Part shown: piece by piece, positions 3,863 to 29,761 of the stretch
Layout of the letters: each line of letters starts with the position of its first letter
Numbering within the stretch: the first letter of the stretch is position 1
NCBI RefSeq assembly: GCF_000406145.1
Contig: NZ_CM001976.1
Span: 807,260-839,259, forward strand
Direction: 5' to 3'
From: Dickeya dadantii NCPPB 898
Lineage (GTDB): Bacteria; Pseudomonadota; Gammaproteobacteria; Enterobacterales; Enterobacteriaceae
Length of the DNA: 32,000 nt
Position numbers and translations under genes: made by a program
Notes under the pieces: generated by a model
Databases searched by the model: none
Told to the model about the DNA's origin: nothing
Seen by the model: the letters and a program-made list of their open reading frames with translations, nothing else

Positions 3863-4786
3863 TTATGCATCCGGCTGCTGTTCCTGCTCCATAATCCGAA
3901 TCAGGTGGTCGGTAAACGCGGAAACCGCTTTCGGCAGCGTGCGGCCTGCCAGCGTGTTCAGTTCGATGTTGAGTCCGTTTAGGTCCTGACCGGTAATCGG
4001 CACCGCCACCATATCGTGATCCTTCAGGTATTGCCGCACCACCAGCTCGGTGGAGATGACCACGCCGTCGCAGTAACGGGCGAACGCCAGCAGGGCGCTG
4101 ATGGAGGTGGTTTCAAACGCCGGATCGATCAGCAATCCCTGACGGCTGCAGCAGGCGTCGAATAGCCGCCGGGTCAGGATGTGGCGAACCGGCACGCCAA
4201 GCGGATAACCCGCCAGTTGCGACAGGCGCAGGCTCGATTTCTCCGCCAGCGGATGGTGGCGCTGCATCACCGCCACCAGCGGCGAATGCAGCCGGTAGGC
4301 GACATGAATGTTGGCGGTTGGTATCTGACTGAACGTCAGCCCGATGTCGCTTTCGCCCTCATTCAGCCGGCGCGCCACTTCTTCGGCCGTCGCCACCAGT
4401 AGCTGAAAGCGAATATAGGGGTAATGCCGGCGAAACGAGGCGATCGCCATCGGAATAAAATCCAGGCTAAATCCCGCCGTGGACACAATGCGTACGTCAC
4501 CGCGGCGCAAACCCTGCAACTCCCGAATTTCCTGCGTCACTTGCTCGGTTTCCAACTGATTGCGAAAGGCGTAGGCCGCCAGCAGTTCTCCGGCGGCGGT
4601 GGGGATCATACCGCTTTTCCGCCGCTCAAACAGCGTGGTGTTGAGCCGGTCTTCCAGCCCGCTGACCTGGCGGCTGATGGCGGAGCCGGCCACGTTGAGC
4701 CGCAAGGCGGCTTCACTGATGGAACCACAACGCACCACTTCCAGAAAATAGCGCAGGGCGGTGTCCTGCAGATAACGTGCGGTCAT
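3863..4786 (-). CDS. LysR-family transcriptional regulator
   Basis: N-terminal wHTH (LRYFLEVVRCGSISEAALRLNVAGSAISRQV) and a length of about 300 aa. It is divergent from the MFS gene. A TTGCC-N5-GGCAA dyad lies at 4810-4824 in the shared intergenic region. Confidence 0.9.
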   Translation of the reverse strand: MTARYLQDTALRYFLEVVRCGSISEAALRLNVAGSAISRQVSGLEDRLNTTLFERRKSGMIPTAAGELLAAYAFRNQLETEQVTQEIRELQGLRRGDVRIVSTAGFSLDFIPMAIASFRRHYPYIRFQLLVATAEEVARRLNEGESDIGLTFSQIPTANIHVAYRLHSPLVAVMQRHHPLAEKSSLRLSQLAGYPLGVPVRHILTRRLFDACCSRQGLLIDPAFETTSISALLAFARYCDGVVISTELVVRQYLKDHDMVAVPITGQDLNGLNIELNTLAGRTLPKAVSAFTDHLIRIMEQEQQPDA

Positions 4787-4966
4787 GCGATTCCCTCAAT
4801 GATTGAAGTTTGCCATTTCGGCAATGAGGTGGTGAAAAAGTTGAAATAGCAGTATGGATGGCGGGTGTTTAGTATGCAATCAGGAGGTGTTATCGGCACA
4901 GGAAAAGGTGTCGCAGAACGTACTGGCTTCAGACAATGAACACATCACACAGAGGACTCGGGGCAG

Positions 4967-6182
4967 ATGGGGTATTACACGAGAAAAAAATCATATTGGG
5001 TGCTGTTCCTGCTTTATATCGGCTGGTGCGTGGCTTTTATCGATCGCGTGGTGCTGAGTATGGGCTCGACTCAGATGGCGAAAGAGCTGTCGCTGTCGCC
5101 CAGCGAGGTTGGGCTGGTGCTGAGCGCGTTTTATTTTTGGCTTCTGGTTGATGCAGTTGCCCGGCGGCTGGCTGGCGGACCGCTTTGGCGCCAGGGTGGT
5201 GGTGGCGATGGCGATAGCCATGTGGTCGCTGTTTACGTTCCTGACCGGTATCGCCTGGTCGTTGACGGCGTTACTGGTGATTCGTTTTCTGTTCGGGTTG
5301 GGGGAAGGCGCCTACCCTTCCGCTTCCGTCAAGAATGCGGCGGAGCAGTTCCCGCCGAGTGATAAACCGCGCATGACCTCGCTGCTGATGTCTTCCAACT
5401 ATGTGGGCAGCATGATTGCGCCGTTGCTGATCGCGCCGCTGATTCTGGCGTTGGGCTGGCGTCATGCGTTCATGGTGATTGGTCTGTTCGGTATCGCCTT
5501 CGTGCTGGTCTATACCCTGACCGTCAGCGCCAGGCCGGCATGGGTGTCCGATGAACCGGAGCGCCTGAGCGGTGCGGAGTGGCGCGACGTGATGAAAAAT
5601 CCGCTGTTATGGCGGCTGGCGGCGGTCTGGTTCGGCCTGAGTTTGATCAACAAGGGGCTGGACTCCTGGATGCCGATTTACCTGATGACCGAACGCCATC
5701 TGGACCTGAAAGCGGTGGGGGTACTGTTGCCAATTCCCTACGTGATGGCCGGGGTGGCGACCGCCTGCGGCGGCTGGGTGATGACCCGTTTCTTTGATGG
5801 CCGCGAGCGGCTGATGCTGATGGGATGCGCTTTGCTGACCGCCCTGTTCCTGTATCTGATGTACAGCGCGTCGACCGTTACCGCCGTGGTGATAGCGCAG
5901 TCCTGCGCCTACTTTTTCAAATCGTTCGTGCTGGCGATCGCCGTGGCGCTGCCGACCAAGGTACTGGCTTCGCGCATGGTGGGGTCCGGCATCGGGGTGA
6001 TCAACGTTGGCGGTCAGGCGGCCGGGTTTATCGCGCCGCTGGTCATTGGCGCGATGGTGGAGTATTTCGGCTATCCCTCGGCGTTTTTGTTTCTCATGGC
6101 GGCAGCCGCGTTCTCGGCGGTGGTGAGCCTGACTATTCATACGCGCCCGTCGGCGAAAACCGACATGGCAGCGCAGGTTTGA
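4967..6182 (+). pseudogene. MFS transporter (anion:cation symporter-like) with a reading-frame break in a T-run near 5129-5138
   Basis: Frame 1 (4967…) encodes the first TM region up to …LVLSAFYFW. The rest (FGFWLMQLPGGWLADRFGAR… to 6182) is in the +1 frame, which has a TGA at 5121. The two parts join only if one base is added or removed in gcgTTTTaTTTTTgg. Confidence 0.7.
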
Positions 6183-8501: not shown

Positions 8502-8553
8502 GCGGCGTCGCGCATCATTGCGGGACACCGTCTGGGATCAGGTGACGGTAGTA

Positions 8554-8824
8554 TCAGGTAATGGTGTTCCCGCACTGACCGCAAAACTTCGCGCCAGCCT
8601 GTACCGAGGTGCCGCATTGCGGGCAAGCTGCCGGCACGAGCGATGAGCCACATTGCTGGCAGAAACGCGCGGTGGCGGCATTGAGCGACCGGCAATTCGG
8701 ACAACTCATCCCCGCGTTGTTCCCGGTTGGGTAACGGTCATGAGAATCACGATGGCCGTTGCCGTGATGATATCCGTGATGCCCCTCCGTGATGACCGCC
8801 AAATAATTTGTCAAAAATACCCAT
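8554..8824 (-). pseudogene. His/Gly-rich double zinc-ribbon protein with its frame broken at a G4 run. The 51-aa zinc-ribbon ORF 8554..8709 stays intact with its own ATG.
   Basis: GGAGA-N7-ATG at 8824 opens MGIFDKLFGGHHGG, then hits a stop at 8747. In the next frame the text continues HHGYHHGNGHRDSHDRYPTGNNAG-MSCPNCRS…CQQCG…CPQCG…CGQCGNTIT. The junction is the run at 8782-8785. Confidence 0.5.
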
Positions 8825-8916
8825 AGATATTTCTCCGCGCACTGTTGGAATTTGCCAGACGACCGACGCTGTGGATAAGCGCCACCCGTTGTATGCGGCT
8901 TATTCAACACCCTGTA

Positions 8917-8988
8917 GTTACTATAGGGTCAAGCGTTACTATAGGGTCAAGAGTTATTACAGGGGCAAGAGTTACTACAGGGTCAAGC
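8917..8988. repeat. Four tandem 18-bp direct repeats (GTTACTAYAGGGTCAAGM)
   Basis: Units lie at 8917-8934, 8935-8952, 8953-8970 and 8971-8988. Units 1 and 2 differ at 1 nt and unit 3 is the most diverged. There are no spacers, so this is not CRISPR. Confidence 0.9.
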
Positions 8989-9393
8989 GGGAAACATTTT
9001 TCCGAGCGCTCCCGTTTTCTGAAAGGATTCAGACTGCCAGAACAACAACAGTTTGATGCCACACCGGGCGGCTTGATTCAGCCATTTATGAATAAGATTG
9101 TTTATTGGTGAGTCATCCAGCGCGTTTAAAGAAACAACGGCGGTTATTGTCCGGACAGTATCTGAACGAATACGATCGGTAAGTCCGCATTGATGTGGAA
9201 GAAAAATCATAGGTTAACGATACTTCCCACGACGCGATATTCCATCTTGCTGTGCTATACCCGCATGGTTAGTATCTGGCGCAGCGGTGCCTTGTATTTT
9301 CCCCGGCCTTGTTGTGGCCGGGGTAAGGGAATGATTGAGACGGAAAGGAATAGTACAGTATTTATAAAAAAAATCAGTTAACTGCGTCTGACA

Positions 9394-10176
9394 CTATTCT
9401 TTTACGCTTAAATCAATATCGCCAAAATACCGTTTCTTGATACTGGAAAATTCACCGCTGTTCATTATGTTTTTCAGGCCCTGATTGAGCATCTGCTTTG
9501 TTTCCGTATCGCCTTTGCGTATACCGTATGCTGAACCGATACTGAACAAATCCGCATCGGTTATTTCCGGGCCTTTTAACTCAAAATCCTTACCTTCCGG
9601 GGTTTGCAGGAATCCGAATGTCAGAGCAACCGATGGGCTCAGCGCACCGTCAACCCTCCCGGCATATAAATCTTCGTAAATGGCTTCCTGATCAGGGTAG
9701 GTTATAACGTTAACCCCTTCCGGCAGCCAGTGTTTGTTGGCGTAGGCCTCCTGAATGGTTCCTTGTTGTACCGCTATATTTTTCCCTCGCAGCATGTCGA
9801 CCTGAGGAAGAAGGTTAGCCTCTTTCCTGGCGACAAATCGGGTTGGTATATGAAAAAGATAGTCGCTGAAATCTATCGATTCCTTTCTCTTTTTTGTCAC
9901 GCCAAGTGGTGAAATAACGTCTATTTTTTTGGCGAGAAGGGCCGGGATCTGAGCATCGAATGTGTTTACGATATAGTCACATTTTGCATTTACTGATTTA
10001 CAGATGGCGTCGGTTATATCGATATCAAACCCCGCTGGGTTGCCATATTTATCTCTTTCTTGAAAGGGAGGAAAAGTCAAATCGACGCCAATGCGAATGA
10101 CGTCCTGCTTGGCAAATGCAAACGGTGAAATAGTAAAAATAACAATGAGTTTCAGGAGAGATAATTTTCTGAACAT
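9394..10176 (-). CDS. Periplasmic amino-acid-binding protein (family 3 SBP, ArtJ/HisJ-like), orphan
   Basis: ATG at 10176 follows AAGAGG. The signal peptide is MFRKLSLLKLIVIFTISPFAFA. GFDIDITDAIC and the rest are SBP_bac_3-like. No permease or ATPase gene is adjacent. Confidence 0.8.
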   Translation of the reverse strand: MFRKLSLLKLIVIFTISPFAFAKQDVIRIGVDLTFPPFQERDKYGNPAGFDIDITDAICKSVNAKCDYIVNTFDAQIPALLAKKIDVISPLGVTKKRKESIDFSDYLFHIPTRFVARKEANLLPQVDMLRGKNIAVQQGTIQEAYANKHWLPEGVNVITYPDQEAIYEDLYAGRVDGALSPSVALTFGFLQTPEGKDFELKGPEITDADLFSIGSAYGIRKGDTETKQMLNQGLKNIMNSGEFSSIKKRYFGDIDLSVKE

Positions 10177-10666
10177 ATGCAATAAAACCTCTTTTAACCG
10201 TATAAAAATGAATGTAAATATTTCGGTATCCATATCATTACCCGTAGAAGGAAATGAGCTGATACTGCGTTGGCTTGCCCTCTTAATTTGGACATAACAA
10301 GGCCATATTTCCGGAGCGTATGCAGCACCGCGTCTATCGCGGTTGTTAGTGAAGACAGGCAATACGCCAGACATTGCATTATCACTCAGCCCCACATCCG
10401 GAAAACGGACGTTAAGTTATCGTGAAATAATAACAAAATGTTATTATTTTATTTGCAGAGTGTAAGAGTTATGAATATCTATGTGCGGTAAGACGAAAGG
10501 ACTGCTTTTGCATTGTGAATCACTGGGCGGGTGTGTTGTTGGACGCGCAATCCATAGAGAGCAGATGACGGCACGCCACGAGCTAATCCTCGTGGCGGAA
10601 TGATGCTGTCGTCACGATCAACGTAATCTGAATCATCTTGATATCACTCAGGTATACCCGATCAGG

Positions 10667-11302
10667 CTATCGTGAGCTGATGCCGGGTGCCTGATTAACA
10701 AATTCGGGGTTCGAGATTTGATCGAACATAAATAGGGCAACGTCCTGACGAGAGACCGTCTGCGAATGTGTTGTGCGTCCATACAGCCCGACATTCAGGC
10801 GGTTTGACGCGGGCGTGTTTTTCAGGAATGGCACACGGACCATCGTCCAGTCCAGCTCTGAAGCGCGTATCGTGTTTGCCAATCCGATAATGTCCTGAAA
10901 GGAGCCGGGCATCGCAAACCGGATAAGTAATGCCGGGAACCTGATTTTTAGATCAAATCTGTCTTCAGGATCTGGGGCTGTACCGGTTGATACGGCAATC
11001 AGGCGCTTTACGCCTTCCTGCTTTATTACCGCAGTGATGGCGCTCATGGCGGCGGTAATCGGCAAGTTTTTGGGGTGTTTTAGTGAAGTCGGGCCGAGTG
11101 CCGACAACACCGCGTCAGCACCCGAAATAGCCTCTCTTAGACGCTCTCTGTCGGTGAGTTCTCCGTGTATGACTCGTACGTTGGCGTTTTCAAATGGGCT
11201 GTTCGGTCGGGCAAAGACCGTCATATCCATGCCGCGCGTTAATCCTTCATCAATCAGATAGCTGCCGGTTTTTCCGGTTGCACCGAAAAGGGTTATTTTC
11301 AT
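10667..11302 (-). CDS. NAD(P)H-binding (NmrA/BVR-B-like atypical SDR) oxidoreductase
   Basis: ATG at 11302. MKITLFGATGKTGSYL carries a Rossmann GxxGxxG motif. Length is 211 aa. Confidence 0.8.
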   Translation of the reverse strand: MKITLFGATGKTGSYLIDEGLTRGMDMTVFARPNSPFENANVRVIHGELTDRERLREAISGADAVLSALGPTSLKHPKNLPITAAMSAITAVIKQEGVKRLIAVSTGTAPDPEDRFDLKIRFPALLIRFAMPGSFQDIIGLANTIRASELDWTMVRVPFLKNTPASNRLNVGLYGRTTHSQTVSRQDVALFMFDQISNPEFVNQAPGISSR

Positions 11303-11358
11303 GTTAAACCTCGGGGAAATGGAAGGTATGTTGCCGGTGGAACGGCCGGGTCTTTTAG

Positions 11359-11766
11359 TTAACGAAGTGCCTGGATTGCTATTGCAACAGGTGCGTAGGG
11401 CGATGAAGGTTCCCGAGCAACGTTTTGTGTCGCGAAAGAGGCTGCCAGAAGGATGAGCCCTACGGCTGCCGGAATAGCGCCTTTGGATTTGTGAACACCA
11501 AGGTGTGCGAGTCCGGATAAAATCAGGTGATACAAGATGCCGGCATACGCAAGATCGCCGAGTGCCACATTGAAGCGTGACAGAATTGCAATCGGGCCCA
11601 GTACTTTTACCACGATCATGAAGGGAACGAGGTTGGAAGCGGAGTAGCCCAGCTCTGCCTGTATCTTTCGAACATCGGCGCTCTTCGTGACATATAGCGC
11701 GGCTGAAGTGAAATAGAGCAGAGAGAGTAGAACGGTACTGATCCAATAGGTATAGGTAGCGGCCAT
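11359..11766 (-). CDS. DoxX-family membrane protein
   Basis: ATG at 11766. The 135-aa product has four hydrophobic segments and sits upstream of the NAD(P)H oxidoreductase, divergent from the HxlR gene. Confidence 0.65.
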   Translation of the reverse strand: MAATYTYWISTVLLSLLYFTSAALYVTKSADVRKIQAELGYSASNLVPFMIVVKVLGPIAILSRFNVALGDLAYAGILYHLILSGLAHLGVHKSKGAIPAAVGLILLAASFATQNVAREPSSPYAPVAIAIQALR

Positions 11767-24107: not shown

Positions 24108-24653
24108 ATGGACAGAATCACGGCTATTGAACGTTTAAACGCATTCGATAAGCAAGGGCGCTATGTTTTCACTTCCCGCGATTTAGCCAAAATTTTTCAT
24201 GAAGATCGCCCCAGAGCGTTTAATGCCGGGCTAAATCGACTGGTAAAAGATGGCATTCTGACCCGTGCGATTCGCGGGGTGTACGTCTATAACCATGCCA
24301 AAAGCAAAGACGCTTATACGCTTGAGCGCATCGTGTTAGCGCTGCGACGTGGCGAGTATAACTATCTCAGCCTTGAATCAGCGTTGTCTGAGTATGGTGT
24401 CATTTCTCAAATCCCGATTGGCCGGATCACGGTAATGACAACAGGACGTTCAGAAGAACATAAAACGCCTTTCGGTGTGATCGAATTTACCCATACCAAG
24501 AGGCCGCCTGAGCAGATTTTGCAGGATACCTATTTTGGTCATTCCCCATTAAGGCAAGCGACTAAACAAACTGCGGTGAGGGATTTACGCCGCGTCGGAC
24601 GTAACACCCATCTGATCGACGAATCGGAGCTATACCATGAATCAGAAAGTTAA
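24108..24653 (+). CDS. abiEi: Type IV toxin-antitoxin / abortive infection antitoxin AbiEi
   Basis: 181 aa. The N-terminal wHTH-like region (…FTSRDLAKIF…GLNRLVKDGILTRAIRGVYVY) is typical of the AbiEi_4 family. It overlaps the next gene by 17 nt. Confidence 0.8.
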   Translation: MDRITAIERLNAFDKQGRYVFTSRDLAKIFHEDRPRAFNAGLNRLVKDGILTRAIRGVYVYNHAKSKDAYTLERIVLALRRGEYNYLSLESALSEYGVISQIPIGRITVMTTGRSEEHKTPFGVIEFTHTKRPPEQILQDTYFGHSPLRQATKQTAVRDLRRVGRNTHLIDESELYHESES

Positions 24654-25554: not shown

Positions 25555-25792
25555 ACATCCATGCCCAAATAAAAAGATTCTTCGAAAAACTGTTCACCCT
25601 CTTCACTCGATAGTTTTGTTATTTATAATCAATGCATTAATGGGTGATGAGTAACTCAGAAAGTGACGGTGACTCATCACTCTCTCCTGACAAGCTAAGA
25701 GGCTAAAGACTGCGACTATTAGTGAGAACAATAAAATGAGTGGGATGGTGATAATATAGTAGAAATTTTTAACGTCCCTGTTAAGTGAGTTA

Positions 25793-26386
25793 TCAATCCT
25801 CCCAATGGGCTTCAATGAACTGTATTTCTTTATTAACTCTAACTTCTTGTTTTTCTTTATTTCCCGAAAAGAAAAATTCTTTCCCTGACGTAAGATCAAG
25901 TACTGAATATTCAAAACCCTGATCGCCAATTGCCCTTTCCATTAAAAAGCAAATGAAATTAGCTCTCTCTTGAGTCATTTTCTCGCTATTGCTAAAATGT
26001 AGTTTTACTAATTTTGATTTTCCTTGTAGGTTTACGTTTAATTCAGGGTTGCATGATATATCTGTTTTTGCATAGTGATAGTATCTTTTGGGTGCGGGGA
26101 ATCCGGTAATGTTTTTTCCTGATTGCCACTCATTGAATACGTTAACTATTTTTTCAAAGTATATCTTTTTTGAGGAATTTTTTTCTTTTCTGCATAAATC
26201 ATAGAGCTCTGATATATGTCCTTTTTTTACTATTAATTTTTTTATTGCATCTCTTATTTTCTTATAAAAATCCTTACCCGGATGATAATCTGGTCTATTT
26301 GCTATGGATTTTATTTTGTTGATCTTTGTTTGAGGTGAGGTATTAACAGCAATTGATGAAAACTCAGCAACACCTAGTGATGGCAT
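25793..26386 (-). CDS. Hypothetical 197-aa protein: AT-rich cargo gene with no recognisable domain
   Basis: ATG at 26386 follows GGAGA-N7. The ORF is clean in very AT-rich DNA (19/60 G+C at 26101-26160). It has an AT-rich upstream region of its own, with TTGATA-N17-ATAATA on the minus strand. The product is Lys-rich, with no TM segment and no signal peptide. Confidence 0.7.
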   Translation of the reverse strand: MPSLGVAEFSSIAVNTSPQTKINKIKSIANRPDYHPGKDFYKKIRDAIKKLIVKKGHISELYDLCRKEKNSSKKIYFEKIVNVFNEWQSGKNITGFPAPKRYYHYAKTDISCNPELNVNLQGKSKLVKLHFSNSEKMTQERANFICFLMERAIGDQGFEYSVLDLTSGKEFFFSGNKEKQEVRVNKEIQFIEAHWED

Positions 26387-26586
26387 AGTATTTCTCCGTA
26401 TTGTCATTGTTATGAGGGAAAATATCACTGGTTAATCATTTGGACAATGATTTGTTAAGGGTGGGTGATTGGTGATTATTTTATTATTATTTAATATTCA
26501 GCTAATATATCAATCATGATATAACTTTTCCTTATAATCTTGAGATTAATTATATTCTAAGTTTTTTGGTGAAAAAGTATTCACGG

Positions 26587-26606
26587 CAAAACCGGCCGGA
26601 GCCGGC
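26587..26606 (-). terminator. Putative terminator of the alpha gene
   Basis: The minus strand reads AGCCGGC-TCCG-GCCGG-TTTT, starting about 20 nt after the alpha stop. Confidence 0.45.
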
Positions 26607-26627
26607 TGTGCCGCTGTCTATGCGGGA

Positions 26628-28952
26628 TCAAGCCCTGTCACATTTAGGCAGCCAGTCGGCGTCTGATTCGTCTTTCAGTTCAAGGTTGGTTTGTACGCCT
26701 TGTTTGGTTCTGCCCTTGAGGTAGGTCAGCCCATATTCCGACATGATGTTAGGTAGCACTTTGCCAAAAGCCGTCAGGCTTATGGGCTTTTGATGGCCGT
26801 GCGACTCCATAAATGACAGATAGGCGTGGTACAGGTATTTACGGGGATTACGGGGCGTGATGTTGGCGTTTCCCATATACAGCCCGGTGGAGCTACTGTG
26901 TGCCCGTAGGTAGCCACAAAAATCAACCAATGGATCGGCCTGACGTTTGATTTCCAGCGCTTCGGCGGAATGTTGTTGTGCCTGTAGCAATGTCCGTGCA
27001 TCGTTGGGGTCGGCAAAGCGTTTCATCAGGTGACGCACCATCACGGCCAGTTCCGCCCGGATTTTCTCTTTCAGCTTGGGGTCGCGTTCGCTTGCCGGAA
27101 TGGGCTCGCTGAAGTGAATAATCACCCGGCGGCGAGACACGCCGCCGCTGCGGTCGCTAAAGCGCATCGGGGTGTTGTTGACGGCCAGAATCACTGCCGG
27201 AATGCGGGTGGAATAGGCATCACGGTATTTCGGGTCCACCATCACCGCATCGCCGCCGGTAATGGCTTTGATACCGGCACCATCACCGCTCCATTTCTCC
27301 TGATCAGGCAGTACGATGAATGAAAAACCAATAAGCGACGCGCGTTCACGGGAAGATTCAATGGTGTTGATGGTCGCCGCCGTGGTGTTGTCCTCGCCGG
27401 CCAGCATAGTGGCAATCTCGGCCAGAATACTTTTCCCGCTGCCGCCGGGGCCGGTCACTTCAAGGAACAGTTGCCAGTCGTAGCAGTTTGCCAGCACCAT
27501 AAACAGCGCGGCCATAATACGTGCCTGTTTATCTTCGTTGTGCCCTGCCGCACGGGTCAGCCAGCGCCAGAAGTGCGGGGCATTGTCGGCAAGGTTTTCT
27601 CCTTCCTTAAACGGCGTGTAGTCCACGTCATTAACGGTATGCAACCCGTGCTCCCTGCGGTGTGGCTTAAACTCCCCGCTGACGGTATCAAACACGCCGT
27701 TACGAAAGCCGATTAACCGGCGCTGCGGCTTGGCCTGCATGGGGATAATCAGTTTCAGGGTGTCTAACACGCTGCCAATGCTGGATGCGGTAAAGGGAGC
27801 CTGTATCTTCTGAAACAGCGCGGCGATATCCCGGCTTAACAAGCGGTAGGGTAAGGCTTTCCATGCACCGTTTTGATACTGGAAGAAGGTTTCCCCAAAA
27901 GCATCAATAGCCAGCGTGTCGCGGTAATGGTCGCATATCTTCTCCGCTTTCTCACTGGCGCCCATGGCCTTGAATTCGGCCTCGCCCAGCGACTCAAACG
28001 GGCTGGCCTTTTCCGGCTGGATAAACTCAGTCAGGTAGTGCCGTGTGACGTCTGCGCCTTCACGGCGGTACACATCGTTCCAGTCACCAAATACCGGCGG
28101 CAGAGCGACACGGCCATGTACAGCAGAAGCGGCCTGACCGGCTTTGGACTGGCCGGTGCCGTTCTCGTCCCGGTCAGCGGCGATCAGCAAGGTCGCCGCC
28201 GGGTGGCGTGTTTTCAGTTCACGGGCAAGGGATAGCAGGTTGTTAGCGCTGAGTGCGACATACACAGTATCACCGGTTAGCCGATGCAGTGTTAACCCGG
28301 TGGCATAGCCTTCAGCCAGCCAGATAACGGTGGTCTGTTTGCCACTGAAGCAGTAAAACGTGCCTTTAACCTGCCCGCCTTTCAGCGTGCGTTTGTCGCC
28401 CTGTGCATTAATTAACTGGATGTTTACCACCTCGCCATCGTGCGTGGTCAGCGGCACCAGTACATCACCGGGCTGATAGACGATGCCGCCCACGCGCAGC
28501 GGTTTGCCCTGTAGGGTGAGTACGTCCACGTCCGGCCAGCCTTTGGCGCTCAGGTAGGCATTGCCGGACTGTGTAACCGTTTCTTTGATTTTGGCCTGTG
28601 CCTGAACTGCCGCCCGTTGTCGGGCGGCGTCGTTATCATCATCGTCGGAAGTTGATGCTGCCGGGCTATCCGGCAGCGCCCCCAGCAACGCGCCCACTTT
28701 CAGGGCGGCGTCGGTTGTCGTCAGGTTCAGGGCTTTCTCAACCAGATTCAGTCCGTCACCCGCGCCACACTGGTTACAGAACCATGTGCCGCGCTCCTCT
28801 TTGTTATCGAAGCGGAAACGGTCTTTGCCACCGCATATCGGGCAGGCGCTATGCCGCCCGGCTGCGTCAATAGAAATCCCCAGCAGGGGGAGGAGTTGCG
28901 GCCAGTGGCTGCTGGCGCGTTTCACGGCCTGTGTCACGGTAGGTTGTGCCAT
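26628..28952 (-). CDS. P4 alpha-type bifunctional primase / helicase / origin-binding protein
   Basis: 774 aa. The N-terminal zinc ribbon is CPICGGKDRFRFDNKEERGTWFCNQCG. The TOPRIM motifs are LAEGYATG and LIAADRDENG. The Walker A motif is TGPGGSGKS, followed by FIVLPDQEKW. Confidence 0.9.
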   Translation of the reverse strand: MAQPTVTQAVKRASSHWPQLLPLLGISIDAAGRHSACPICGGKDRFRFDNKEERGTWFCNQCGAGDGLNLVEKALNLTTTDAALKVGALLGALPDSPAASTSDDDDNDAARQRAAVQAQAKIKETVTQSGNAYLSAKGWPDVDVLTLQGKPLRVGGIVYQPGDVLVPLTTHDGEVVNIQLINAQGDKRTLKGGQVKGTFYCFSGKQTTVIWLAEGYATGLTLHRLTGDTVYVALSANNLLSLARELKTRHPAATLLIAADRDENGTGQSKAGQAASAVHGRVALPPVFGDWNDVYRREGADVTRHYLTEFIQPEKASPFESLGEAEFKAMGASEKAEKICDHYRDTLAIDAFGETFFQYQNGAWKALPYRLLSRDIAALFQKIQAPFTASSIGSVLDTLKLIIPMQAKPQRRLIGFRNGVFDTVSGEFKPHRREHGLHTVNDVDYTPFKEGENLADNAPHFWRWLTRAAGHNEDKQARIMAALFMVLANCYDWQLFLEVTGPGGSGKSILAEIATMLAGEDNTTAATINTIESSRERASLIGFSFIVLPDQEKWSGDGAGIKAITGGDAVMVDPKYRDAYSTRIPAVILAVNNTPMRFSDRSGGVSRRRVIIHFSEPIPASERDPKLKEKIRAELAVMVRHLMKRFADPNDARTLLQAQQHSAEALEIKRQADPLVDFCGYLRAHSSSTGLYMGNANITPRNPRKYLYHAYLSFMESHGHQKPISLTAFGKVLPNIMSEYGLTYLKGRTKQGVQTNLELKDESDADWLPKCDRA

Positions 28953-28962
28953 GTGTTGCCCT

Positions 28963-29175
28963 TCAGTGCAGTGTGGAGTCGTTCTGGTCGGGGTCGTTCT
29001 GGTCGTCGATAGCGTCGGGCCTATCCAGCGTGACCGAGAGCACTTCTAAGCGTTCGGCCAGCACAAACAACAGCACTTCTTTTGCCATCGGGTTATCCAG
29101 CTCAATCACGGCATAGGTCAGGGCGCGGCACTGGTCGGTAATTTCTTCTGCGGTCAGGGGCGTGGCATCAAACAT
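28963..29175 (-). CDS. Hypothetical 70-aa acidic protein, translationally coupled to the Icd-like gene
   Basis: The ATG at 29175 overlaps the icd-like stop (ATGTTTGA). The gene ends 10 nt before the alpha start. The C-terminus DRPDAIDDQNDPDQND is strongly acidic. Confidence 0.5.
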   Translation of the reverse strand: MFDATPLTAEEITDQCRALTYAVIELDNPMAKEVLLFVLAERLEVLSVTLDRPDAIDDQNDPDQNDSTLH

Positions 29176-29365
29176 GGCGGGCACCCCGCAGCGGCAGGCG
29201 GCCAGCAAACGACAACACGTAGTCACGTGCCAGCAAACGGCGGGCGCTGATTTCATCCGGGGCGATAACGGCTTCACGGTGCGGTAAGGCGCGTAATTCC
29301 GCGCGGCGCACGGCCAGAAACAGAAAGGTAAATAGCGGGTGTGACGGGATTGGGGTGGCAGCCAT
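29168..29365 (-). CDS. Icd-like (host cell division inhibitor-like) small protein
   Basis: 65 aa: MAATPIPSHPLFTFLFLAVRRAELRALPHREAVIAPDEISARRLLA…. This resembles the Icd-like proteins found after C4/CI RNAs in P1/P4-type elements (by recollection). AAGGAGG lies 8 nt upstream of the ATG. Confidence 0.6.
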   Translation of the reverse strand: MAATPIPSHPLFTFLFLAVRRAELRALPHREAVIAPDEISARRLLARDYVLSFAGRLPLRGARHV

Positions 29366-29421
29366 GTGGCAGCCTCCTTGAAGTAACGGTTACCGCTACC
29401 ACCAGAAACGCCAATTTCAGG

Positions 29422-29500
29422 GGTGGTAGCCCAGACGGGGTTGGCGTAACCGGACTTCAAGGAAACCGGCGCTTCCGAAGAAGCCCCCGCCTGAGCCACC
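29422..29500 (-). ncRNA. P4 CI / P1 C4-like antisense immunity RNA (cloverleaf-like)
   Basis: Minus-strand fold:
- Outer stem GGUGGCUCAG / CUGGG(CUA)CCACC.
- Inner stem GCGGGG / CCCCGU.
- Hairpin GCUUC-UUCG-GAAGC.
- Hairpin GCCGG-[UUUCCUUGAAGU]-CCGGU.
The loop of the last hairpin (seqB) is complementary to two ACUUCAAGG sites on the same transcript. Confidence 0.6.
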
Positions 29501-29567
29501 ATAATTTGGATGCAGTGACGGCATAAAGTGTGCCGCACGTTATGCAAGTGTGCTAAGGCTGCGACGT

Positions 29568-29590
29568 AAAAAAAAGACGCATGGCGCGTC
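29568..29590 (-). terminator. Intrinsic terminator directly after seqA (immunity terminator candidate)
   Basis: The minus strand reads GACGC-GCCAU-GCGUC followed by U8. It begins 8 nt after the seqA match (29598-29606). Confidence 0.65.
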
Positions 29591-29761
29591 TGAGTCGCCT
29601 TGAAGTTAATCGGGACGCCAATCCCGGCTGTCGATTTTGCGACAGCGATGGAACTATAACGCCAAGAAGCCCCGGCAGGCAAGCCGGGGAAAGGGATAAA
29701 TTGCGTACTCATAACAGCCTCGGCAGTTGGTCAGCACGTCGCCAGTGCGGGATTAAAATGA

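Follow-up and report, generated by a model that had tools for sequence, protein, structure and literature searches.

A small predicted nuclease-fold protein family carried as single-gene cargo by P4-like satellites and Vibrio integron cassettes

The Gene and Its Coding Status

The DNA analysed here (the window) is a stretch of 32,000 nucleotides (nt) from Dickeya dadantii NCPPB 898 (contig NZ_CM001976.1, positions 807,260 to 839,259), part of which is a P4-like phage satellite. Next to the satellite's alpha primase/helicase gene lies an AT-rich gene for a protein of 197 amino acids (aa), the subject of this report. Its product belongs to a family that is confidently predicted, from structural models, to adopt a RecB/Cas4-like fold and thereby to join the PD-(D/E)xK superfamily of nucleases. 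The gene is autonomous, and its relatives recur as cargo at defence-rich sites in mobile or variable structures of three kinds. The favoured reading, whose chances of being right and of being wrong are about equal, is that of a predicted stand-alone, self-promoted nuclease serving as one-gene anti-phage cargo. The gene is specified by two features:

25793-26386 (stop included), minus strand: coding sequence with ATG start; product of 197 aa, 22.8 kDa, isoelectric point (pI) 9.3

26397-26393, minus strand: Shine-Dalgarno element GGAGA, 6 nt before the ATG, read from the sequence

The original prediction took this to be an independent gene with a clean open reading frame (ORF) and a promoter region of its own, and the comparative evidence bears it out. 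There are 42 full-length homologues with 51-97% identity, and substitutions are overwhelmingly synonymous, with nonsynonymous to synonymous rates (dN/dS) of 0.074/1.84 against the homologue from Pectobacterium brasiliense and 0.008/0.232 against that from D. undicola. The gene is therefore real and coding, and it is under strong purifying selection (dN/dS of ~0.04). A D. dadantii protein already on record (WP_071604498.1) is 100% identical to it. A GTG-started longer version of the same ORF extends to 26428. The strong ribosome-binding site that had been proposed is present as GGAGA, but its spacing from the start codon is 6 nt, not 7.

The gene stands out from its surroundings in composition, as had been claimed: its G+C content is 32%, against 55.5% for the whole window, and in 500-nt windows the G+C fraction is 0.30-0.37 across the gene versus ~0.58 in the flanks. 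Judging from this composition, the Dickeya gene is a horizontal acquisition. In most hosts the gene is likewise much more AT-rich than the DNA around it, which suggests repeated horizontal acquisition.

An Undescribed Protein Family

The label of orphan, attached to the gene by the original prediction, does not survive a sensitive search. A profile made from 30 close homologues and run against 1.84 billion representative proteins, clustered at 50% identity, matched 635 clusters at an E-value (E) of at most 1e-3 and 331 at E ≤ 1e-10. Almost all of the 150 matches listed are single-domain proteins of 195-210 aa, and in 10 longer relatives no additional domain is recognisable. V. vulnificus, V. 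fluvialis, V. alginolyticus and Shewanella algae are among the further species in which cluster members are found, and a genome scan for the close family yielded 8 species representatives.

The companion claim, that the family is undescribed, has held up. All members are annotated as hypothetical, and none has a precomputed Pfam domain. The window protein has no significant match in Pfam, NCBIfam, PADLOC (PADLOC-DB v2, 0 matches among 5027 models) or PHROGs, and none of these four libraries relates it to a toxin family. When 87 diverse relatives were compared with Pfam, NCBIfam and PADLOC, no family was matched consistently; the PADLOC matches were weak and scattered, 8 of them to the orphan-methyltransferase model PDLC03721 (best E 1.3e-5). 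The original prediction was to fall if the protein proved homologous to a known defence family or to a P4 maintenance function, and no such homology was found. It was also to fall if the homologues lay mostly in non-mobile contexts, and the close homologues do reside on mobile elements. The literature search found no paper with the family's WP accessions or sequence motifs. The supplement of a screen of V. cholerae integron cassettes contains no motif match, and the family is not among the 16 systems which that study describes (bioRxiv 10.1101/2024.07.02.601686). The family thus appears to be undescribed and uncovered by curated databases, and to be of a familiar kind, that of small nuclease-fold cargo in defence hotspots.

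A Predicted RecB/Cas4-Like Fold with a Non-Canonical Candidate Active Site

The AlphaFold2 model of the window protein has a predicted local distance difference test score (pLDDT) of 92.9 and a predicted template modelling score (pTM) of 0.89. It consists of five N-terminal helices, a beta-meander, a hairpin (residues 116-120 and 123-130) and, after it, a helix, a further pair of strands and a helix at the C-terminus; residues 1-90 make up a helical N-terminal half, and residues 93-197 a PD-(D/E)xK-type alpha/beta core. The N-terminal half is strongly basic and lysine-rich (pI 9.8) and the core is mildly acidic, a split that, in the model, fits a nucleic-acid-binding enzyme.

In a Foldseek search of the PDB, the top match is the Argonaute-associated, Cas4-family ACE1 (PDB 9IAB, 9IAC; E 4e-5, template modelling (TM) score up to 0.59), followed by AdnAB, Dna2, MGME1, RecE and Cas4 SSO0001 (PDB 4IC1), with RecU, AddAB and RecBCD lower down. 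Against a library of viral structures, the matches are PD-(D/E)XK, RecB-family and YqaJ-type phage nucleases (E 5e-6, TM up to 0.63). PD-(D/E)xK nucleases account for almost all PDB matches at E ≤ 0.1 and for all named ones in the viral top 50. A second model (pLDDT 94.3), built from a different alignment for a Planctomycetota relative with 27% identity, gives the same top PDB matches. The likeness of the two models to Cas4/RecB nucleases extends over nearly their full length (alignments of ~200-230 columns, E 1e-5 to 1e-3, TM 0.5-0.6). It includes a helical N-terminus that precedes the alpha/beta core, and an acidic residue that follows a proline and opens a strand, with a lysine 13 residues further on. 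The earlier statement that the protein matches no nuclease motif is thus superseded by the predicted fold.

In an alignment of 87 sequences with 33% mean identity, the residues conserved family-wide are Y34, D39, R45, N113-P114-E115, K128, L129, M149, L163-D164, E187 and W195; a second alignment, of 68 sequences, returns the same invariant set. Several of these map to positions of the PD-(D/E)xK site. P114-E115 precedes strand 116-120, at the place where the acid of the "PD" motif begins strand 2, and K128 lies in strand 123-130 (strand 3), 13 residues after E115, which is the canonical spacing. The (D/E)xK part of the site is non-canonical because position 126, two residues before K128, is V, L or I family-wide. 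The second acid could come from one of three other conserved residues: D164, at the end of the strand that follows, D39 or E187.

The family also departs from the Cas4 and RecB enzymes in several other respects. It has neither sequence nor profile similarity to them, and the hydrophobic residue takes the place of their middle acid. The four-cysteine iron-sulphur (Fe-S) cluster is absent, as C65, C112 and C146 vary within the family, and so is the QxxxY motif, for which helix 139-153 offers no conserved Q...Y pair. At 197 aa the protein is smaller, and it has neither a fused nor an adjacent helicase, Cas1/2 or Argonaute. The family is therefore placed in the superfamily by fold and not in the Cas4 family, given that a sequence link, the Fe-S cysteines and QxxxY are all missing.

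These departures bear on whether the predicted site is active at all. The family could instead consist of catalytically dead PD-(D/E)xK-fold proteins that bind DNA or nucleotides and act as regulators, sensors or exclusion factors. The loss of the (D/E)xK acid across the family, the very basic N-terminal half and the lack of motif IV and of the Fe-S cysteines all agree with this. However, D39, E115, K128, D164 and E187 are invariant or nearly so in an alignment this divergent, as would be expected of an active site. Active PD-(D/E)xK enzymes in which the middle acid is missing or relocated are also known, among them those of the MspI, HinP1I and Cfr10I/NgoMIV type. A dead fold is thus quite unlikely.

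Single-Gene Cassettes in Chromosomal Integrons

In Vibrio the family is found in chromosomal integrons. The V. cholerae homologue (58% identity) is the sole gene of a 929-bp cassette between two V. cholerae repeats (VCR/attC; in locus L009, repeats at 3989-4122 and 4918-5051, gene at 4299-4889 and intIA at 8522-9484), in an array that starts at intIA beside rplT-infC-thrS. The gene is oriented antisense to the array and brings with it ~175 bp of upstream DNA, which adjoin its attC. A single-gene antisense cassette of this kind is also present in V. parahaemolyticus, in four arrays with differing neighbours, and in V. furnissii, where it measures 896 and 914 bp. In this orientation the integron promoter Pc is unusable, and the gene must hence be self-promoted. 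These ~0.9-kb cassettes, together with neighbours that differ in every locus, confirm the single-gene nature that the original prediction had assumed.

No attC site was found beside the window copy. Its flanks share no blastn similarity with the flanks of the Vibrio cassettes, and no array-type repeats lie nearby; a degenerate remnant may nevertheless persist.

Integron cassettes are a productive source of defence genes: 18% of the tested uncharacterised cassettes of V. cholerae N16961 proved to be anti-phage, several of them small nucleases (bioRxiv 10.1101/2024.07.02.601686). Cassettes named in that study, such as Damona, Divona, Epona and Sirona, are likewise single-gene and belong to sedentary Vibrio integrons (Darracq et al., bioRxiv 10.1101/2024.07.02.601686). 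The family resembles them in its small protein, in a predicted fold of nuclease type and in being missed by standard defence finders. It differs in that its cassette is antisense and has its own promoter.

Sedentary-integron cassettes with their own promoter are mainly toxin-antitoxin systems, which share with the present cassette an expression independent of Pc and an orientation that may oppose the array (PMC13108822). An antisense, self-promoted cassette could therefore encode the toxin of a module for addiction or stabilisation, whose unrecognised antitoxin would be an RNA or the N-terminal half of the toxin itself; such a module would be kept because it stabilises the array or the satellite. 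In favour of this, RelE-type toxins are adjacent to the gene in two loci, and the gene is split in some D. dianthicola strains. In the D. dianthicola locus L001 (8851-10021), and also in L002 and L003, an insertion sequence (IS) of the IS630 family, with its transposase gene at 8962-9999, sits inside the gene. The insertion point is the TA of codon 4 (CTA), which corresponds to about 26375-26377 in the window, and the TA is duplicated (ATGCCATCAC/TA...IS...TA/GGCGTT). The insertion separates the gene from its promoter, its ribosome-binding site and codons 1-3; the annotated 198-aa ORF of the split allele takes its ATG from the end of the IS, 1 nt past the transposase stop. The intact allele is however the commoner one in this species, on 62 contigs as against 6. 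The cassette itself differs from toxin-antitoxin cassettes in being one gene with no antitoxin and no toxin-family match: ~0.9 kb leaves no room for a second ORF, no neighbour is conserved, and the DNA upstream of the gene contains no type III antitoxin-like RNA repeats. An addiction module is thus distinctly improbable.

Prophages, Chromosomal Islets and the Absence of a Partner Gene

Outside integrons and satellites, the family turns up in other variable places, in several cases with an established or candidate defence gene alongside. In Photobacterium halotolerans the homologue occupies a moron position in a Mu-like prophage, beside a RelE-like toxin. On a Bacillus thuringiensis phage-plasmid, the single match among annotated plasmids (tblastn), it likewise has a moron position, on the opposite strand and next to the antirepressor/repressor region. 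Shewanella salipaludis has a three-gene islet (L023 8620-9949) in which the homologue accompanies the PADLOC candidate system PDC-M53A/B (5.9e-27, 2.5e-50), flanked by core genes, SDR and PhaC on one side and metH on the other. On other contigs, homologues lie beside insertion sequences or RelE/helix-turn-helix pairs.

A conserved partner gene was considered and rejected, since the neighbours differ in every locus compared: no neighbouring ORF is conserved across loci, and the small upstream and downstream ORFs are unrelated from one locus to the next. The same comparison dissolves the link to AbiE that had been drawn from the window. AbiE is adjacent in Dickeya only, and it is not found beside the Pectobacterium, Vibrio, Photobacterium or Shewanella copies.

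Two unrelated homologues do have suggestive company. In a Planctomycetota locus (L030 3799-8606), an NsnA-like gene (7e-89) and a gene for an LmuB-like SMC ATPase precede the homologue on the same strand, with the ATPase gene in the middle, and in Vibrio sp. Y2-5 (L021 5791-8594) an NsnA-like DUF262 gene (2.4e-60) lies ~1 kb from it. Both NsnA-like neighbours are of the Menshen sensor/PD-T4-2_A-like, GmrSD_N type. Their adjacency could be chance co-location in defence islands or a functional link in some lineages. Taken further, these two loci, together with a Bacteroidota-like contig on which an HNH_2 gene follows 28 nt downstream, would cast the protein as the effector subunit of a multi-gene system, in which an NsnA-like DUF262 sensor and an SMC/ABC ATPase might be the other components, and the window copy as a stray or trans-acting one. 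Neither the window nor Pectobacterium nor any of the integron cassettes has such neighbours. The architecture of Menshen does not fit either: NsnC combines an N-terminal inactive-PIN domain with a C-terminal effector, and none of its 15 listed effector families is PD-(D/E)xK (PMC12065111). By contrast, the N-terminal half of the present family is all-helical, no PADLOC NsnC model matches it, and the window contains no NsnA or NsnB. A multi-gene system is accordingly very improbable.

Further arrangements were noted. In the metagenomic contigs L038 (7001-8350) and L039 (1125-2474), the gene 28 nt downstream on the same strand encodes a 232-aa HNH_2 protein (PF13391), and in L012 an HNH_2 gene lies 6 kb from the homologue. 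An Alphaproteobacteria metagenome-assembled genome (L037 7001-8568) carries two tandem copies of the family, 92% identical, 223 aa each and ~220 bp apart.

The presence of the family on prophages and satellites, and the fact that its closest folds are those of end-processing and recombination exonucleases (RecE, YqaJ-like, MGME1, Dna2, AddAB/AdnAB), raise the prospect of an active small nuclease working on behalf of its mobile element and not against phage. It might be a recombination or end-processing exonuclease of RecE/YqaJ-like type, a weapon against competing plasmids and elements, or an anti-defence factor. Yet the loci examined show no neighbouring single-strand annealing protein and no recombination partner of another kind, and recombination modules would be unusual as integron cassettes. 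The distribution also argues against it: tblastn found no match in 50,697 deposited phage genomes, and IMG/VR gave 2 matches only, whereas core phage recombination genes would be far commoner. A nuclease in the service of its element is therefore unlikely.

The Host Satellite and Its Insertion Slots

The slot of the 197-aa gene is best described against the backbone of the satellite and the neighbouring defence system:

26628-28952, minus strand: alpha primase/helicase, 774 aa (Pfam Zn_Ribbon_Prim, Toprim_3, D5_N, DUF5906, Pox_D5)

25565-25680, no strand: backbone segment, 82% identical by blastn over 118 nt to Pectobacterium element L010 11336-11452

24637-25554, plus strand: AbiEii (Pfam and PADLOC match, 1.6e-118)

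24108-24653, plus strand: AbiEi (Pfam and PADLOC match, 1.4e-78)

Alpha borders the slot on its upstream side and shares 59.7% identity with its P4 counterpart, and upstream of it are Ash, AlpA and the C4 and isrK RNAs; on these grounds the element is a P4-like satellite. The stretch with Ash, C4 and isrK is the P4-type immunity region. In it, a 249-aa ORF with an Ash match (28963-29712, minus strand; PF10554) overlaps Rfam matches at 29419-29659 to C4 antisense RNA, isrK and the a1/b1 C4 target.

On its other side the slot is bounded by the backbone segment 25565-25680, which contains a 12-bp inverted repeat at 25644-25680 (GTGATGAGTAAC-N13-GTGACTCATCAC) and one P4-type TGTTCACC repeat at 25591-25598. 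By analogy with the P4 map, on which alpha is followed only by a terminator, crr and attP and by no such gene, this segment may be the satellite's crr equivalent; it may alternatively be a bidirectional terminator. AbiEi and AbiEii, a complete defence system in their own right, lie beyond the segment and are oriented convergently with the 197-aa gene; the gene and AbiE hence occupy two separate insertion slots.

The claim that the gene sits in a defence-enriched slot of the satellite is well founded. Both the gene and AbiE lie between alpha and the chromosomal junction, which is the position of the primase-att region, a minor defence hotspot of P4-like satellites that holds 7% of P4 defence systems (PMC13586616). 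In the same survey, 6 of 8 randomly chosen uncharacterised P4 loci gave phage protection (PMC13586616). The major P4 defence hotspot had been described before (Rousset et al., 2022, PMC9122126). The new P4 systems validated there, Crouga, Bandua, Aernus, Toga, Reve and Hailong, differ in architecture from the present family (PMC13586616).

D. dianthicola has the same gene order as the window, AbiE included. In the P4-like satellite of P. brasiliense the homologue follows alpha directly, in the same slot, and AbiE is absent. These satellites carry other cargo as well. The classical hotspot on the int/psu side holds Hachiman (HamA and a DEAD helicase) in P. brasiliense (L010 1-3580) and a ParA/CbiA-like ATPase with a SIR2_2 protein in D. 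dianthicola (L001 1461-3319). An 83-aa ORF immediately downstream of the Pectobacterium homologue (L010 10772-11023) resembles, on visual inspection, antitoxins of the Phd/YefM type. The window lacks it, and the small ORFs beside other homologues are unrelated to it.

A gene that directly follows alpha, beside a crr-like region, in two P4-like satellites might be expected to have a P4-specific function, in satellite replication or maintenance or in interference with a P2-type helper, the latter being the anti-helper role raised by the original prediction. The gene is however absent from P4 and, at the sensitivity of a DNA search (blastn), from 5,426 E. coli genomes. Most relatives reside in integrons, prophages and chromosomal islets unrelated to P4, and the composition of the gene is foreign to the satellite backbone. 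The probability of a P4-specific function is close to negligible.

The Upstream Region

A very AT-rich leader of ~240 bp separates the start of the gene from the stop codon of alpha. Three features were distinguished in it:

26419-26447, minus strand: candidate proximal sigma-70 promoter, with -35 TTGTCC (26447-26442), 17-nt spacer and extended -10 TGaTATTTT (26427-26419)

26485-26513, minus strand: distal promoter-like site, TTGATA (26513-26508), 16/17-nt spacer, AATAAT/ATAATA

26587-26608 (hairpin 26592-26606), minus strand: terminator-like GC hairpin, GCCGGC-TCC-GGCCGG, followed by TTTT, just past the alpha stop at 26628

By position the hairpin corresponds to the terminator of P4 alpha, and it marks the upstream edge of the AT-rich insert. 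A promoter region downstream of the alpha terminator, as had been proposed, is present. Its details have fared less evenly. The distal site, put forward as TTGATA-N17-ATAATA, can be read in the sequence, but promoter-like matches in the AT-rich stretch are not above chance (5, versus 4.2 +/- 2.3 in shuffles), and by blastn the site is not conserved in Pectobacterium. The inverted repeat AATCATT-N5-AATGATT is likewise present at 26434-26452, but it is 1 of 17 comparable repeats in 1.2 kb and is imperfect in both D. undicola and Pectobacterium. As a specific operator it was rejected, being imperfect in sister species and lying within a conserved block that is better read as a promoter.

That block, the 34-nt stretch 26426-26460, is the sole upstream block common to Dickeya and Pectobacterium (blastn), and it is probably the proximal promoter of the gene. 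The consensus promoter scan did not list the proximal site, which has 8/12 matches; its -35 element is overlapped by the inverted repeat.

The Favoured Reading and Its Implications

A stand-alone nuclease that acts as anti-phage cargo is placed near the midpoint of the scale because of the hotspot position, the defence neighbours, the high hit rate of uncharacterised genes in both reservoirs and the active-site-like conservation. Several points weigh against it. The structural TM-scores of 0.5-0.6 are moderate, and neither Pfam, with the 87 relatives included, nor a PDB sequence search ties the family to nucleases; an hhalign comparison with an approximate lambda exonuclease sequence gave a probability of 0.3%. 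The hydrophobic residue at position 126 points the same way. Several distant relatives lie in plain chromosomal places, after polA in Desulfovibrio, after fur and beside an ABC transporter, and the association with defence comes from individual loci and is anecdotal. Finally, a constitutive nuclease that has no immunity partner would need a mechanism of discrimination, for which only a guess can be offered.

Under the favoured reading, the gene would form a cargo module by itself, with transcription driven by its own promoter. The protein would bind nucleic acid through its lysine-rich helical N-terminal half, and a metal site formed by E115 and K128, with a second acid from D164, D39 or E187, would cleave the DNA of an invading phage. 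Since there is no methyltransferase or other partner, discrimination between self and non-self would have to come from the substrate. The target might, speculatively, be linear phage DNA or replication intermediates, by analogy with the structural neighbours that act on free ends or single strands.

A more specific version of the favoured reading is tentative and should be taken as somewhat more probably wrong than right. It holds that the family is a hitherto overlooked, widespread stand-alone anti-phage nuclease with a predicted PE...xK plus distal Asp site, which has no partner, discriminates by the form of the DNA (ends or single strands), and is shared among three cargo systems that tend to be treated separately: antisense, self-promoted integron cassettes of Vibrionaceae, the primase-att slot of P4-like satellites in plant-pathogenic Pectobacteriaceae, and prophage morons.

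If true, the family would be among the smallest self-sufficient nuclease defences, with a testable active site (E115, K128, D164, D39) for several hundred clusters that curated databases do not cover. Integron cassette pools, phage satellites and prophages would then share one stock of one-gene defence modules. The survey of defence exchange between P4 and P2 leaves the integron link unconsidered and has 0 mentions of integrons (PMC13586616). Dickeya and Pectobacterium are targets of phage biocontrol, and such satellite genes, should the reading be correct, would affect which therapeutic phages work. If the prediction fails, the family would still illustrate cleanly that an antisense, self-promoted integron cassette need not be a toxin-antitoxin system.

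A Second Low-G+C Stretch in the Window

One other stretch of the window, chromosomal and unrelated to the gene, is of lower G+C (9001-10500, 0.40-0.46). The gene at 9394-10395 (minus strand) within it encodes a family-3 solute-binding protein. The next gene, for an NAD(P)H-binding protein (10667-11746, minus strand), lies in DNA with a G+C of 0.51-0.53.

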